Virus record (IMG/VR): IMGVR_UViG_3300047284_000378
DNA length: 64,000 nt
Reading direction: 5' to 3' (one strand)
Origin: a virus
Position numbers and translations under genes: made by a program
In this document: one piece after another, positions 6,852 through 11,705 of the stretch
Numbering within the stretch: position 1 is the stretch's first letter
How the letters are laid out: each line of letters begins with the position of its first letter
The notes under the pieces: model-generated
Database searches by the model: none
What the model was told of the DNA's origin: nothing
The model's input: only the letters and a program-made list of their open reading frames with translations

Positions 6852-7442
6852 TTGTCTGCGCTGGTAATAGGCAACGGCGAAAGTCGCTCGTCTTTGGATC
6901 TAATCGAATTATCTAAAAACAAAATAACGATCGGTTGCAATGCTCTGCACAGAGATTTTGTCACAGATCATCTCGTCTGCTGCGATGCTCGCATGGTCAG
7001 AGAAGCTCTATCTAATCCCAAAACTTCAAGGTCCAAAATCTACGTTAGAGATTCTTGGTACGCTACCTTTAGAAAGATACAGAAGAATAAGAACATTTTT
7101 CTCTTGCCAGAGCTTCCATATCAAGGAAGCCTAAGACCTGATAATCCCACACATTGGGGTAGTGGCAGCTATGCTGTTCTGGTATCTGCATCGCTATGCG
7201 AAGATGTTACTCTGATAGGTTTCGATCTCTACGGCAGGCAAGGTCAAGTGAATAACATATATAAAAACACAGAAAACTATGCCAAGGAAGAATCAGCTGC
7301 TATAGATCATAGCTACTGGGTTTACCAGATATCAAAAGTATTTGACTGTTTCCCAAACACTAGGTTTAAAATCTTAAATCATCATTATTGGTGCATGCCC
7401 GAAGAATGGCAAAAAAATAATGTTGAATTTGTTGCATTATAA
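6852..7442 (+). CDS. Rossmann-like sugar/pyrophospho-transferase-type protein (MptE/MAF_flag10/GT29-like)
   Basis: LVIGNGESR, IGCNA, LIGFDL motifs; probable TTG start at 6852 (track start 6810). Confidence 0.5.
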   Translation: MSALVIGNGESRSSLDLIELSKNKITIGCNALHRDFVTDHLVCCDARMVREALSNPKTSRSKIYVRDSWYATFRKIQKNKNIFLLPELPYQGSLRPDNPTHWGSGSYAVLVSASLCEDVTLIGFDLYGRQGQVNNIYKNTENYAKEESAAIDHSYWVYQISKVFDCFPNTRFKILNHHYWCMPEEWQKNNVEFVAL

Positions 7443-7460
7443 ATACTCTCACAGTATAAT
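7432..7460 (+). promoter_or_regulatory. Dual promoter (sigma70 plus T4-like late) for queD
   Basis: TTGCAT(7432-7437)-17nt-TATAAT(7455-7460) with TATAAATA (7438-7445) in the spacer. Confidence 0.65.
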
Positions 7461-7481
7461 ATACACTTACACACAGAGCAC

Positions 7482-7559
7482 AGCGGTCTCCAATGGCATT
7501 CAACCCGCTATATAAATTCTGCATGTCATCAAACTTACTCGCTTATTTTTACAGGAGGC
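7482..7559 (+). ncRNA. Candidate preQ1-I-like riboswitch/pseudoknot in the queD leader
   Basis: P1 AGCGG(7482-86)/CCGCT(7505-09), loop starts UC and ends AAC, A-rich tail; loop ATGGCA can pair with TGTCAT(7524-29), and GTCTCC with SD GGAGGC(7554-59). Confidence 0.4.
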
Positions 7560-7564
7560 AAGAG

Positions 7565-8107
7565 ATGGCGAAATATTACTCAACAAAAACTTACGGCAAC
7601 GATAGAGGTCTTAGTTGTTGCTTTAGACAATGGCGTGCCACACACAGCCATTGTTCACTGCTACATGGTTACTCAATTGGTATCAAACTTGTGTTCGAAT
7701 GCGACACACTAGATGAAAAGAATTGGGGCATGGATTTCGGTGGACTAAAAGATTTCAAAGCATGGGCAGACTATATGTTTGATCATACCACAGTGATCGC
7801 TGAAGATGATCCACTATTACCTAGATTCAAAGAGATGGCCGGCTGGAGCAGTGATCCAGAGCATGATGGAAATCCGGAACGTGTACAAACTGAACCTTTC
7901 CATCGCAAGGGTGTCTGTGATCTACGCATCGTAGAAGGTGTTGGCTGCGAACTGTTTGCTAAGATGTGCTATGATAAGATGGATTGGCTGCTGAAGAACG
8001 GTAATCACCGTTATCCGCTTAATCCAACTGTGCGTATCAAATCTGCAGAAGTATTTGAACACGCAGGCAACTCTGCAATTTATCAAGTGGATTGGAATCT
8101 TGATTAA
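7565..8107 (+). CDS. queD: 6-carboxy-5,6,7,8-tetrahydropterin synthase (PTPS/QueD family)
   Basis: HCSLLHGY, DFGGLK, FDHT, E-GNSA motifs; SD GGAGG before ATG 7565; metal site is a variant (HGY). Confidence 0.85.
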   Translation: MAKYYSTKTYGNDRGLSCCFRQWRATHSHCSLLHGYSIGIKLVFECDTLDEKNWGMDFGGLKDFKAWADYMFDHTTVIAEDDPLLPRFKEMAGWSSDPEHDGNPERVQTEPFHRKGVCDLRIVEGVGCELFAKMCYDKMDWLLKNGNHRYPLNPTVRIKSAEVFEHAGNSAIYQVDWNLD

Positions 8108-8792
8108 TGTAATCTGTGTTCGATTAGGTAACAAATACGGCAGAGACTATGTAGAAAAACTACGTAACATGGTTTCTAGGCATCTCACTCTGCCGTATCG
8201 ATTTAATTGTCTCACAGATGATCAGCATCCCATAGACGGTGTCAATATCGTATACCTTCCAAGCCAAGGATATAAAAAACTATGGTGGCATAAGGTACAT
8301 CTGTTTGACCCGTCTCTTAATCTAGAAGGTAGGATACTATACTTCGATCTAGATGTTATCATCCATGATAATATCAATAAATTAGTAGAAAACTACAAAG
8401 ACGAATTCCTAGGCATTAGAGATTTCAATAGAAAATTCAATCCACAATGGAACATGTTGAACAGTTCTGTCATGAGTTGGAATGCTGGCCGACACCCTGA
8501 CATTTTTACAGTTTTCAAAGATGATCTTAATAGAGCACAACGACTACACGGAGATCAAGATTGGATATGGCAGATAGCTAAGAATCGAATTAAATTTTGG
8601 CCTGAATTATGGATCCAAAGCTATAAATGGGAAATACGGGATCGAAACGAGCTGGCCTACGAAGGCGGTAAGAGATTTTTCAAAACAGTGAAGAATGTAA
8701 AGATTCCTCAGGACTGTAGTGTCTGTGTATTCCATGGTGATCCAAATCCTCACGATATACAAGATCCTTATGTACTTGACAACTGGCGCTAA
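8100..8792 (+). CDS. GT-A fold glycosyltransferase
   Basis: YFDLDV (DxD), NSSVM, GDQDWI, VFHG.P.P motifs; TTG start overlapping the queD stop. Confidence 0.75.
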   Translation: MINVICVRLGNKYGRDYVEKLRNMVSRHLTLPYRFNCLTDDQHPIDGVNIVYLPSQGYKKLWWHKVHLFDPSLNLEGRILYFDLDVIIHDNINKLVENYKDEFLGIRDFNRKFNPQWNMLNSSVMSWNAGRHPDIFTVFKDDLNRAQRLHGDQDWIWQIAKNRIKFWPELWIQSYKWEIRDRNELAYEGGKRFFKTVKNVKIPQDCSVCVFHGDPNPHDIQDPYVLDNWR

Positions 8793-8804
8793 CGATGTTA
8801 TACT
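8776..8804 (+). promoter_or_regulatory. sigma70 promoter
   Basis: TTGACA(8776-8781)-17nt-TG.TATACT(8799-8804), 6 nt before ATG 8811. Confidence 0.75.
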
Positions 8805-8810
8805 TGTAGT

Positions 8811-9038
8811 ATGAAATTTACTACACATCAAAGTCAAATTCGTACAATCAAACAAGATGATTCTCGTTTTCGTATTGTTGACAAGTTTACAACCTGTGGT
8901 AGAGCAGGTTTTGAAATTTCTCAACAATGTCCTCGAGAATACAAGTTGATTCTCTCTGAATGTATAGATCGTGGATGGATACAACCTGTGGCATACATGA
9001 CTGAACGAGAACTTCTTATTTCAGGACTGAGCCGTTGA
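8811..9038 (+). CDS. Hypothetical protein
   Basis: ORF directly after promoter. Confidence 0.65.
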   Translation: MKFTTHQSQIRTIKQDDSRFRIVDKFTTCGRAGFEISQQCPREYKLILSECIDRGWIQPVAYMTERELLISGLSR

Positions 9039-9039
9039 T

Positions 9040-9225
9040 ATGGACATTCCCTATACTGACCAAGAATGCCGAGAGAAACTAAAAGACCTTTACGAAGGTC
9101 GTACATTGGTTATACCGGCCGACATTGACCATGCTTATCAAATGATGAATCTATCAATGATGTATATCAGAGACAACCAACAACGAATAATGAGTTATTT
9201 AAAACAGGATACTGTAAATGGTTAA
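9040..9225 (+). CDS. Hypothetical protein
   Basis: ORF track; fills the operon. Confidence 0.55.
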   Translation: MDIPYTDQECREKLKDLYEGRTLVIPADIDHAYQMMNLSMMYIRDNQQRIMSYLKQDTVNG

Positions 9226-10276
9226 ACGCATAGGCTTTGCCTGCAAATGGATAGATCATCCTGGCCAGGTAGATGGTATCAAACCCAAGGATGACTGTAA
9301 GAAATATAATACAGGCAGTACCACCGTGGCTTGGTTAAATAGACAAACCAAGGATGTGGCTGTTGAAAAACTATGGTCACTGATGCAACAGAATATCGAA
9401 GCATCTCGACTCCTTGTAGAACGAGTAGGAGAGTTAGATGAAGATCTTAGAATGGTACGACTCAGCAGCGATATCTTGCCTGTGTACACTGAGCCAACTT
9501 GGTCTTGGTATTGGCGGACTTCCGATGTCCGAGCCTATTGCGAAAGAGAGTTTAAGCGTATCGGAGATGCAGCTCGTTCGCAGGGTGTTCGCCTTAGCTT
9601 CCATCCTGGTCAGTTTACTGTTCTTGCATCTGATAATGACGATATTGTAAATCGAAGCATTGAAGAATTCGAGTATCACGTAGACATGGCTCGTTGGATG
9701 GGCTATGGACAAACATTCCAAGATTTTAAAATTAACGTACACATCGCAGGTAGACGAGGCCCCGATGGTATACGTGCTGTCTTGAACAGATTAACTCCCG
9801 AAGCTCGTAACACACTCACAATCGAAAATGAAGAAATTACACACAATCTTGACACCTGTTTGGAACTTGCCGACGTTGTTCCAATCGTACTTGACATCCA
9901 TCATCACTGGATCAATAGTGGCGAATATATTAGGCCTAGTGATGACCGTGTTAAAAAGGTTATTGATAGTTGGCGCGGTGTTCGCCCTACTTGCCATTAT
10001 AGTGTTTCACGGGAAGAGTATTTTGATGACCATTCCAGATACATCAGCCCCGATCTTCGGACGCTATTAGAATCCGGTCACAAGAAAGCAAAACTCAGAG
10101 CACACTCCGATTACTACTGGAATACCGCAGTTAATGAATGGGCTCTGAGCTTTAGAGAGAACTTCGACATCATGTGCGAGAGCAAGGCTAAAAACTTAGC
10201 CTCCTTCGCACTTTATGAACAGGCTAAAGGACTTACTCAGCCTTTGGCTTGCGACCGCGAGTCGTTGCTTTCTTAA
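9218..10276 (+). CDS. uvsE: UV damage repair endonuclease (UvsE/UvdE)
   Basis: RLSSDILP, SFHPGQF, NVHIAG, TIENEE, LDIHHHW, RAHSDY, MCESKAK motifs. Confidence 0.9.
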   Translation: MVKRIGFACKWIDHPGQVDGIKPKDDCKKYNTGSTTVAWLNRQTKDVAVEKLWSLMQQNIEASRLLVERVGELDEDLRMVRLSSDILPVYTEPTWSWYWRTSDVRAYCEREFKRIGDAARSQGVRLSFHPGQFTVLASDNDDIVNRSIEEFEYHVDMARWMGYGQTFQDFKINVHIAGRRGPDGIRAVLNRLTPEARNTLTIENEEITHNLDTCLELADVVPIVLDIHHHWINSGEYIRPSDDRVKKVIDSWRGVRPTCHYSVSREEYFDDHSRYISPDLRTLLESGHKKAKLRAHSDYYWNTAVNEWALSFRENFDIMCESKAKNLASFALYEQAKGLTQPLACDRESLLS

Positions 10277-10541
10277 CAGTTTCTTTGGTTTTCTTAGCCG
10301 CAGCCTTGACCTTGGTCTTGGTTTGTTCAACAACGATCTGTGCATCGGCTGCATCAACCTTGCCATCCTTGTTTACGTCTGCGTCTGCCTTGACACCTTC
10401 TACTGCGATTTGAACAGCGGCCTTGGCATCTTGCACATCAACCTTGCCGTCTTGATTAACATCAAAACTTTTGGTGTTGCGATTATAATACCAAATTCCA
10501 CCTACTGCTAAAACGGCGATTGCTAAAAGAAGTAGTTCCAT
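10233..10541 (-). CDS. Membrane-anchored protein with two dockerin/EF-hand-like Ca-binding loops and basic tail
   Basis: N-terminal hydrophobic helix; DVNQDGKVDVQDA and DVNKDGKVDAADA; TAAATA on the minus strand at 10563-10568. Confidence 0.7.
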   Translation of the reverse strand: MELLLLAIAVLAVGGIWYYNRNTKSFDVNQDGKVDVQDAKAAVQIAVEGVKADADVNKDGKVDAADAQIVVEQTKTKVKAAAKKTKETVKKATTRGRKPKAE

Positions 10542-10561
10542 GGGTTTTTTCTCCTTGTAGG

Positions 10562-11092
10562 TTATTTATTAACTGCTGATAGAATAGCGATTTTATGTGC
10601 CCCTTCTGCGGGTGAAATCCTGAAATTCGTGATCTTGGGTTCTAGGTCGGCAGCGAACCAACCAGTTTTGTCCGAGTAAAAAGATTCTAAAGTCTCGGTC
10701 ATTTGCTTTTTGACCGCACGGTGCTCCGGACTCTGATCCCAGGAATTTGAAAAGTACTTCTGCTCGACCTCACCGGTGTATTCTTGATTTAGTCTAATAC
10801 AGATAAAATCTGCACGATCTTTGTATTCTTCGAATATCGTATGAATATGTTTGTTGATTTCCCAACCGCTCATTATTAGTACATCGTATTCATCTCGATA
10901 AAATTTGATGTAATCGTTGATATAGGCCATGGTTTTTTGCACAGTGGATTCGTAGAATAAACCCGCATCTTGGACTTTAACTCCAAGAAGTTGTTCGTGT
11001 ATCCTGTATTTGGCATCAGAATATGCCTCGATCAATCGATCTACTACTAGATGTTTTGTTCCAGAATTACCTATAGCAAAAATCACTTTCAT
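10562..11092 (-). CDS. Hypothetical protein, possible degenerate P-loop
   Basis: Start reassigned to MKVIFAIGNSGTK (11092); fills gap between genes. Confidence 0.55.
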   Translation of the reverse strand: MKVIFAIGNSGTKHLVVDRLIEAYSDAKYRIHEQLLGVKVQDAGLFYESTVQKTMAYINDYIKFYRDEYDVLIMSGWEINKHIHTIFEEYKDRADFICIRLNQEYTGEVEQKYFSNSWDQSPEHRAVKKQMTETLESFYSDKTGWFAADLEPKITNFRISPAEGAHKIAILSAVNK

Positions 11093-11147
11093 AAATTTGA
11101 TCTCCTTAACAATAATTATTCCAGATAAAATTGCGATAAATATTTGT

Positions 11148-11705
11148 ATGCCCTTACATTTTATTAAATCTCTAACAGAAGCCGCGGACAAGCGAGAACT
11201 ATATCAAGACAAGCTCAAATTTGCCAAAGACGAGCTAGAACCTGTGATGAGCGAAGCTACTATCAAGTATCATTATGACGGACTCGCTGCCAAGTATTCT
11301 GAACGATATAACAAAGGAGAAGGTGATCCCGACTTTAACTACGGCGGCGCGATCTTACACAACCTGTTCTTTGCTAATCTTACCCCACCTAGAGCAGCTA
11401 ATAAACCAGAGGGAATCAGTAAAACTCTAATAGAAGAAAAGTATGATAGTTTTGATAAGTTTAAAGAAGCTGTTGAAAAAGAGTTCATGGCCGCTCAAGG
11501 ATCCAATTGGATCTATATGGATACCCTCGGCGCACTGCACACGATACATAATCACGAATATAAAAAGACCATGAAGATTGCACTGTTGATAGATGCTTGG
11601 GAACACTCTTGGTTTACAGATTACGGCCCCGATAAGGCAAAATATCTATCTAACATCTGGCGAATTATTGACTGGGATGTAGTTAATATTAGATTAGCAA
11701 CTTGA
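11148..11705 (+). CDS. sod: Fe/Mn superoxide dismutase
   Basis: Four metal ligands present (KYHY, ILHNLFF, DAWEHSW); late promoter TAAATA 11137-11142. Confidence 0.9.
   Translation: MPLHFIKSLTEAADKRELYQDKLKFAKDELEPVMSEATIKYHYDGLAAKYSERYNKGEGDPDFNYGGAILHNLFFANLTPPRAANKPEGISKTLIEEKYDSFDKFKEAVEKEFMAAQGSNWIYMDTLGALHTIHNHEYKKTMKIALLIDAWEHSWFTDYGPDKAKYLSNIWRIIDWDVVNIRLAT

Follow-up and report, generated by a model that had tools for sequence, protein, structure and literature searches.

The 64,000-nucleotide stretch of uncultured jumbo-phage DNA filed as IMG/VR record IMGVR_UViG_3300047284_000378 (hereafter the window) encodes a QueD-like protein, and the leader of its gene contains a predicted 48-nucleotide (nt) H-type RNA pseudoknot (positions 7482–7529, + strand). 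Hundreds of related phages retain it by way of compensatory base changes, and comparison of their leaders makes it almost certain that this is a structured, uncatalogued, cis-regulatory RNA. The evidence lies in the structure itself, its conservation, its association with one gene family and pairings in the leader that are mutually exclusive. On balance, the pseudoknot is slightly favoured as the sensing part of a candidate riboswitch, specific to phages, that controls translation of the queD-like gene.

The pseudoknot is built from two helices. The 5-bp helix P1 pairs AGCGG (7482–7486) with CCGCU (7505–7509), and its top pair, G7486–C7505, is invariant. P1 encloses an 18-nt loop (7487–7504; UCUCCAAUGGCAUUCAAC), which opens with L1 (UCUCCA, 7487–7492), where C7488 and U7489 are invariant in the alignment termed A1 below. 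The second helix, P2, consists of the seven-pair P2a, between AUGGCAU (7493–7499) and AUGUCAU (7523–7529), a mismatch of U7500 with C7522, and the two-pair P2b, in which C7501–A7502 pairs with U7520–G7521. The loop closes with L2 (AC, 7503–7504), which places the invariant C7504 directly 5′ of the P1 3′ strand, while L3 (AUAUAAAUUCUGC, 7510–7522, 13 nt) includes the 3′ strand of P2b. Unpaired invariant bases concentrate where P1 and P2 meet. Several of these parts had been recognised from the letters of the window in an original prediction, and its P1, 18-nt loop, A-rich tract from 7510, Shine-Dalgarno (SD) sequence GGAGG (7554–7558) and queD start at ATG 7565 all stand. Its pseudoknot, AUGGCA with UGUCAU, is also real, being one base longer at each end than described, and is conserved and covaries in relatives.

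Conservation and covariation

Taken alone, the window leader is unremarkable, with a folding energy of −17.6 kcal/mol that does not differ significantly from shuffled sequences (z = −0.39). A single sequence proves nothing here, and the evidence is comparative. Published phage genomes gave no megablast match to the window and could not supply comparison leaders, since the closest QueD among them is only 46% identical. Relatives were therefore sought in IMG/VR, where 80 of 267 QueD relatives (those with 70–97% protein identity) were kept, yielding 79 usable leaders. Because these loci were fetched through QueD protein similarity and not through the motif, the set is unbiased with respect to the RNA. 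Alignment A1 comprises 43 distinct sequences from these protein-retrieved loci. A second alignment, made with a P2-based model, holds 101 copies (93 distinct); it was fitted to P2 and thus favours P2, and its seed sequences were also picked for pairing. Finally, a DNA pattern scan of IMG/VR gave at least 120 loci, which together with the first set amount to at least 131 distinct cores.

The motif was found in 74 of the 79 leaders, 73 of which parse fully, with one P1 mismatch in the other (L046). P1 is paired in 100% of cells among both the 43 and the 93 distinct sequences, and both sides vary in four of its five pairs, giving AGCGG/CCGCU, UGCGG/CCGCA, AGUGG/CCACU, AGAGG/CCUCU, AGUCG/CGACU and AUCGG/CCGAU. 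Its closing pair is GC throughout (43/43 and 93/93). P2 is 91% paired in the 93 distinct copies, with 10 of 12 pairs altered on both sides, whereas sliding the partners reduces pairing to 23–55% and the covariation score from 0.424 to 0.01–0.10. The four P2a pairs nearest P2b, on the side of the mismatch, each show three to five pair types. Versions of P2 in relatives include GGCA/UGCC, GGCG/CGCC, GGUG/CACC, GACA/UGUC, GGGC/GCCC, GGCAA/UUGCC and GACGC/GUGUC, among others. P2 also contains 44 G-U cells, which indicates an RNA on the + strand. An unanchored "best helix" swap control for P2 did not discriminate, and anchored counts and model-based alignments were used in its place. Aligning related queD leaders, a check put forward with the original prediction, thus uncovered covariation in both P1 and the pseudoknot.

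Pairing is not the only constraint, as conserved sequence is also found in loops L1, L2 and L3. In A1, which is free of motif bias, 13 positions are invariant and most of them are unpaired. These comprise the top G-C pair of P1, C2 and U3 of L1, a loop G, the C just 5′ of the P1 3′ strand and, within L3, whose length is 13 nt throughout, A3, A5, A7, U9, C10, G12 and C13. The base 5′ of the invariant C is mostly U; the window and a small number of other sequences have A, and about one-tenth have C. The spacer L2 varies from 2 to 4 nt in relatives.

The short helix P2b was proposed from the observation that the loop C-A can pair with the U-G of CUGC across the U/C mismatch, and that one leader (L056) has CG together with CCGC. 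This was put to a test set in advance, in which IMG/VR was scanned for the CCGC form with the loop interior left unconstrained. Every one of the 52 CCGC loci (17 distinct) carries UCG[U/A]C; UCA does not occur among them.

Distribution and gene association

The window holds a single copy of the motif, which scores 62.6 bits against 16 bits for the next-best match. Each of four large genome fragments likewise has one copy, always at queD. A 95%-complete, 335-kilobase (kb) relative in which queD abuts the upstream gene has no motif copy. Among the matches listed, 125 of at least 131 distinct cores directly precede a QueD-like open reading frame (ORF). Of the remaining listed cores, three are cut by contig ends, two head two-gene operons (a cupin followed by queD, and a 293-amino-acid protein followed by queD) and one, a second copy, precedes a radical-SAM ORF. 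In locus L032, motif copies lie at 1347–1393, before a radical-SAM ORF (1422–2360), and at 2927–2973, before queD. The association spans considerable protein divergence: motif-associated QueD-type proteins overall are 30–97% identical to that of the window, and those preceded by CCGC variants are 30–73% identical.

The same pattern gave five matches in 185,579 prokaryote genomes, of which three are true, all on contigs of metagenome-assembled genomes (MAGs). These contigs (L085, NZ_JBBAKG010000001.1, from a Haliscomenobacter MAG; L086; and L089) are filed under Bacteroidota. They may be binned phage DNA, since contig C1 of the Haliscomenobacter MAG matches a terminase, although C1 is not confirmed to be the 183-kb contig that bears the motif. 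The strong SD sequences of the leaders speak against a host from the Bacteroidota.

Expression platforms and predicted switching

Downstream of the pseudoknot, the distinct leaders fall into at least four designs, designated G2 (66 leaders), G1 (37, including the window), G3 (22) and other (6). The element therefore combines one constant sensor with variable platforms and mutually exclusive pairings, a generic feature of riboswitches. In each platform type, the P2 3′ strand forms the base of a helix that hides the SD or the start codon, with an overlap of 2–5 nt. In G1, as seen in the minimum-free-energy fold of the window, GUCAUC (7525–7530), which shares 5 nt with the P2a 3′ strand, pairs with the start region GAUGGC (7564–7569), whose ATG lies at 7565–7567. 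The corresponding G3 helix pairs UGUCAUUG with CAAUGGCA. In G2, the helix is CCUAUG...CAUAGG, and its two C-G pairs use the last two bases of P2. Overall, the AUG or SD is buried by the fold of the tail in 124 of 125 leaders. The distance from the end of P2 to the start codon is 12–42 nt (median 33), and the SD never lies within P2.

Blocking the P2 strand in silico exposes these sites. In G1, the probability of being unpaired rises from 0.21 to 0.44 for the SD and from 0.08 to 0.31 for the AUG; in G2, it rises from 0.24 to 0.59 for the SD, and in G3 from 0.01 to 0.43 for the AUG. The G2 hairpin, at −4.6 kcal/mol, drops to 0 without its two C-G pairs. For the window, the calculated energies are −10.0 kcal/mol for the sequestering fold and approximately −4 to −6 kcal/mol for P2 alone, so that additional stabilisation, for instance by a ligand, would be needed to reach the ON state. 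A scan for terminators found no terminator-like site.

These pairings suggest the following mechanism. Without ligand, the P2 3′ strand (GUCAU plus C7530) would pair with the GAUGGC start region and hide the AUG. A ligand that stabilised the pseudoknot would tie up this strand, freeing the start codon and SD and permitting translation. As P2 cannot form together with the helix that conceals the ribosome-binding site (RBS), the wiring predicts that ligand turns translation ON, contrary to the feedback repression first proposed for the gene. If a small molecule is indeed bound, an ON switch is the somewhat more likely direction. An alternative contact between GUCUCC and the SD (GGAGGC) had also been proposed; it is present in the window but is not conserved, and it looks like chance because L003 and L004 share the SD region but carry GGACUUGA instead.

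Several results weigh against this picture of a riboswitch. The duplex of the P2 strand with the RBS, at −6.2 kcal/mol, is only modestly stronger than that with random coding windows, at −4.7 kcal/mol (median rank 0.26). After shuffling of the P2 strand, pairing with the RBS persisted in 83 of 125 leaders, compared with 105 of 125 observed. With the P2 strand blocked, the window also keeps a fold of −6.9 kcal/mol that touches the start codon. Loci retrieved with the DNA pattern are biased at the positions which that pattern fixes. ON control is unusual for a biosynthetic gene, and the near-exclusive tie to one gene family would be consistent with a protein operator as well.

In the window, the loop strand AUGGCA resembles the true start AUGGCG because both pair with the same strand. 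Among G1 leaders, UCGC goes with the second codon GCG in the subgroup of the window, and UUGC goes with GCA. In the window, 7538–7541 may form a second small start-region helix with 7568–7571, or the match may be due to chance.

Candidate ligand and pathway

The pseudoknot probably binds a small molecule. The most likely ligand would be a guanine-like heterocycle of the GTP–FolE–QueD–QueE route, read by the invariant C7504, whose role in ligand pairing is putative. The earlier suggestion that the RNA may sense something other than preQ1 is a reasonable one.

The protein and its pathway are themselves unusual. The window QueD matches Pfam PTPS (1.7e-11) and the PHROG QueD-like family (7.5e-35). 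It is divergent, scoring 30 bits against a cut-off of 89 with the NCBIfam QueD model, and its best solved relative is an uncharacterised protein (E = 0.004). FolE is present in all five large fragments and a QueE-like radical-SAM enzyme in four of the five; the 95%-complete relative (L065/L211, G006, 335 kb), together with G001–G004, encodes FolE, QueD-like and QueE-like proteins. QueC and TGT/DpdA were not found with Pfam models in the five large fragments or in the 95%-complete relative, although a distant DpdA3-type enzyme would escape such models. PHROG scans around the folE–queE clusters revealed no DpdA-like gene. Pathways are known that end at 7-carboxy-7-deazaguanine (CDG) and rely on a distant DpdA3 (PMC10516641). 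The "phage deazaguanine supply" originally envisaged is not supported: FolE and a QueE-like enzyme are there, QueC and TGT/DpdA were not found by these searches, and the QueD is divergent.

A more ambitious reading, put forward tentatively and somewhat short of an even chance, is that the element represents a new riboswitch class confined to large aquatic phages, which turns on a QueD-type enzyme as a guanine-like heterocycle builds up. This would be feed-forward control with no bacterial counterpart. The heterocycle would be a 7-deazapurine, for instance CDG or 7-deazaguanine, or else a precursor such as dihydroneopterin triphosphate. The FolE–QueD–QueE pathway would then be tied to glycosyltransferases and sugar-tailoring enzymes, without QueC or a recognisable DpdA.

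Riboswitches are rare in phages, and the known examples are copied from bacterial classes (PMC9004378), so a class confined to phages would matter. If this reading is correct, a phage-only class whose distinct representatives number well over 150 and covary cleanly would imply that viruses evolve their own metabolite sensors, here in the form of a 48-nt aptamer for a GTP-derived heterocycle. The ligand would be a direct clue to the product of the jumbo-phage pathway formed by FolE, the QueD-like and the QueE-like enzymes. Moreover, ON logic at a que-type gene would contrast with all three preQ1 classes, which turn genes off (PMC11625349).

Alternative explanations

The strongest competitor, although unlikely, is a translational operator bound by a protein, whether QueD, some other protein of the phage or a factor from the host, for instance S1. 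Protein-binding pseudoknots exist in phage mRNAs, with T4 gene 32 providing a precedent. Like autoregulatory operators, the element is almost exclusive to one gene family over a range of 30–97% identity, and a protein effector could exploit the mutually exclusive pairings just as well. However, three copies head other first genes (a cupin, the 293-amino-acid protein and a radical-SAM ORF). The density of invariant, unpaired junction bases within a 48-nt RNA is also typical of small-molecule aptamers, and PTPS-fold enzymes are not known to bind RNA.

An element that works without any ligand is less probable still. It could sense temperature, enhance translation constitutively, stabilise the 5′ end or serve as a folding or kinetic timer. 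The knot of types G1 and G3 begins a few bases from the inferred 5′ end of the transcript, and the competition between P2 and the RBS-occluding helix could sense temperature or the speed of transcription. Yet the commonest type, G2, is internal to operons, with promoter-like hexamers in only 3 of 66 leaders, and the sequence conservation of L1, L2 and L3 goes beyond what a simple thermometer or stabiliser needs.

The original prediction likened the element to a class I preQ1 riboswitch, and a divergent true member that binds preQ1 or preQ0 and represses queD is a further, rather improbable, explanation. The likeness in architecture holds. The preQ1-I family (RF00522; Bacillus subtilis queC, T. 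tengcongensis, C. antarcticum and E. coli) shares with the phage element a small H-type pseudoknot, a 5-bp P1, conserved L3 adenines after P1, a que-type gene downstream and translational action. In types I–III, P1 closes with a G-C pair that has G on the 5′ strand, and the specificity C directly precedes the P1 3′ strand, following U in type I and A in types II and III (PMC11625349). The phage element has the same invariant closing pair, an invariant C in the same place that mostly follows U or A, and three invariant adenines in L3. It may work similarly to preQ1-I.

Membership of the class is another matter. A search with all 4227 Rfam families over 7420–7600 of the window (181 nt) gave no match even at E ≤ 10, and none was found at the motif in 18 homologous loci, so the preQ1 model RF00522, suggested earlier as a check, failed to recognise the element in either. 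At gathering score, the sole match in the whole window is tRNA-like (558–665), at 29.1 bits exactly on that score. In preQ1-I, the initial U of L1 reads the N9-H of preQ1, and the last A of the A-rich L3, adjoining the P2 3′ strand, reads the ligand edge (PMC11625349). L1 in preQ1-I begins U-U or U-C, whereas in the phage element it is N-C-U followed by one to nine bases: the first base after P1 is A, U or C, and the invariant ones are the next two, C and U. L3 in the phage element has a fixed length of 13 nt and ends Y-U-C-U-G-C (UCUGC at its close), partly paired, with no A adjoining P2. P2 spans 7–10 positions with an internal U/C mismatch, as against approximately 4 bp in preQ1-I.

The regulatory logic differs as well. 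In preQ1-I, SD nucleotides lie within P2, or a terminator is used, and ligand means OFF, as it does in all three known preQ1 classes (PMC11625349). The phage P2 lies 12–42 nt upstream of the start codon and never holds the SD, and its wiring predicts ON. In addition, no QueC was found in the 95%-complete relative, which leaves it without an encoded pathway to preQ0 or preQ1, and unlike preQ1-I the element has been seen here only on phage contigs. Of eight defining features, four are thus present (H-type pseudoknot, closing G-C, conserved C, and its usual position after U or A) and four are absent (model match, L1-initial U, A adjoining P2, and SD within P2 with OFF control), and for this reason the element should not be filed as preQ1-I.

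Lastly, conservation of coding sequence (QueD would gain 24 residues by starting at ATG 7493) or of a protein site in DNA is very improbable: although ORF 7493–8107 is in frame with queD and P1 is an inverted repeat in DNA, the loop ATG is absent in most relatives, variation tracks base pairing and not codons, as the covariation attests, many G-U pairs would become A-C mismatches on the other strand, and P2 is a pseudoknot, not a palindrome.

Relationship to other RNA classes

Other pseudoknot aptamers, namely preQ1-II, preQ1-III, SAM-II and SAM-V, also lay a loop along the groove of the second helix, and the conserved, pyrimidine-rich L1 (C-U) of the phage element, which adjoins C-G and A-U pairs, could form comparable triples. 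Such triples are unproven because L1 stayed unchanged when the A-U pair became G-C. None of these classes gave an Rfam match, and they differ from the phage element in size and consensus.

Parallels in logic come from the Vibrio vulnificus add adenine riboswitch and from guanidine-III, both translational ON switches in which the ligand-stabilised aptamer captures a strand that helps to hide the RBS. The strand-capture principle is the same as that proposed for the phage element; the folds and ligands are unrelated, and those two classes are experimentally validated. The THF-II riboswitch (folE motif) is likewise a cis-regulator in the GTP cyclohydrolase I branch, and pterin has a 2-amino-4-oxo face that the conserved C could read. 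However, THF-II folds as a hairpin that contains an internal loop and acts as an OFF switch, and it gave no Rfam match to the phage element.

Among phages themselves, glutamine riboswitches of the glnA motif occur in cyanophages, pelagiphages and Melnitz, in a study that calls riboswitches rare in phages (PMC9004378). These are also carried by large aquatic phages, but as copies of a bacterial class, whereas the queD-leader element has no bacterial counterpart in the scans made here. A literature search found no paper that describes a queD-leader RNA in phages.

Leader layout and genomic neighbourhood

Upstream of the pseudoknot, the stop codon of the preceding ORF can be read at 7440–7442, within a putative sigma-70-like promoter (7432–7460, + strand) made up of TTGCAT (7432–7437), a 17-nt spacer and TATAAT (7455–7460). 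This is the single plausible promoter seen where a "dual" one had been reported, and it scores under the −35 threshold of the promoter scan. Promoter-like hexamers occupy the equivalent place in 19 of 22 G3 and 17 of 37 G1 leaders, and in relatives' leaders with such hexamers the median distance from the −10 end to P1 is 7–8 nt. The in-frame ATG at 7493–7495, inside the aptamer loop, opens the longer ORF 7493–8107, and its start codon is not conserved; an upstream ORF or an N-terminal extension from this ATG was rejected on that ground.

The queD-like gene (PTPS superfamily, 180 amino acids) occupies 7565–8107 (+ strand) and is followed by a glycosyltransferase-like gene (8055–8792, + strand; phrog_1962, 1.3e-25) with an uncertain start. 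Among the first 80 loci, 15 have a homologue of the latter after queD, and in other relatives the gene after queD is GT2-like by its atlas features. In the group of the window, the UV-damage endonuclease UvdE neighbours queD in 52 of 80 loci and superoxide dismutase in 28 of 80. The window itself runs in one orientation from 7565 to 11705 through the queD-like gene, the glycosyltransferase-like gene, UvdE (9218–10276) and an Fe/Mn superoxide dismutase (11010–11705), such that a damage-protection module adjoins a pterin/deazapurine enzyme.

In other groups, the neighbours of queD include a GT2-like glycosyltransferase, a B12-binding radical-SAM protein, a sugar C-methyltransferase, a cupin, a short-chain dehydrogenase/reductase (SDR), an epimerase and a QueE-like enzyme. 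The motif stands at the head of an operon in many relatives; for example, the motif-headed operons L215:7017-10663, L213:10696-14550 and L085:278-7807 contain queD, a GT2-like gene and a B12-binding radical-SAM or sugar C-methyltransferase gene, then cupin, SDR/epimerase and QueE-like genes. An operon of this kind resembles a pathway that tailors a glycosylated or methylated heterocycle.

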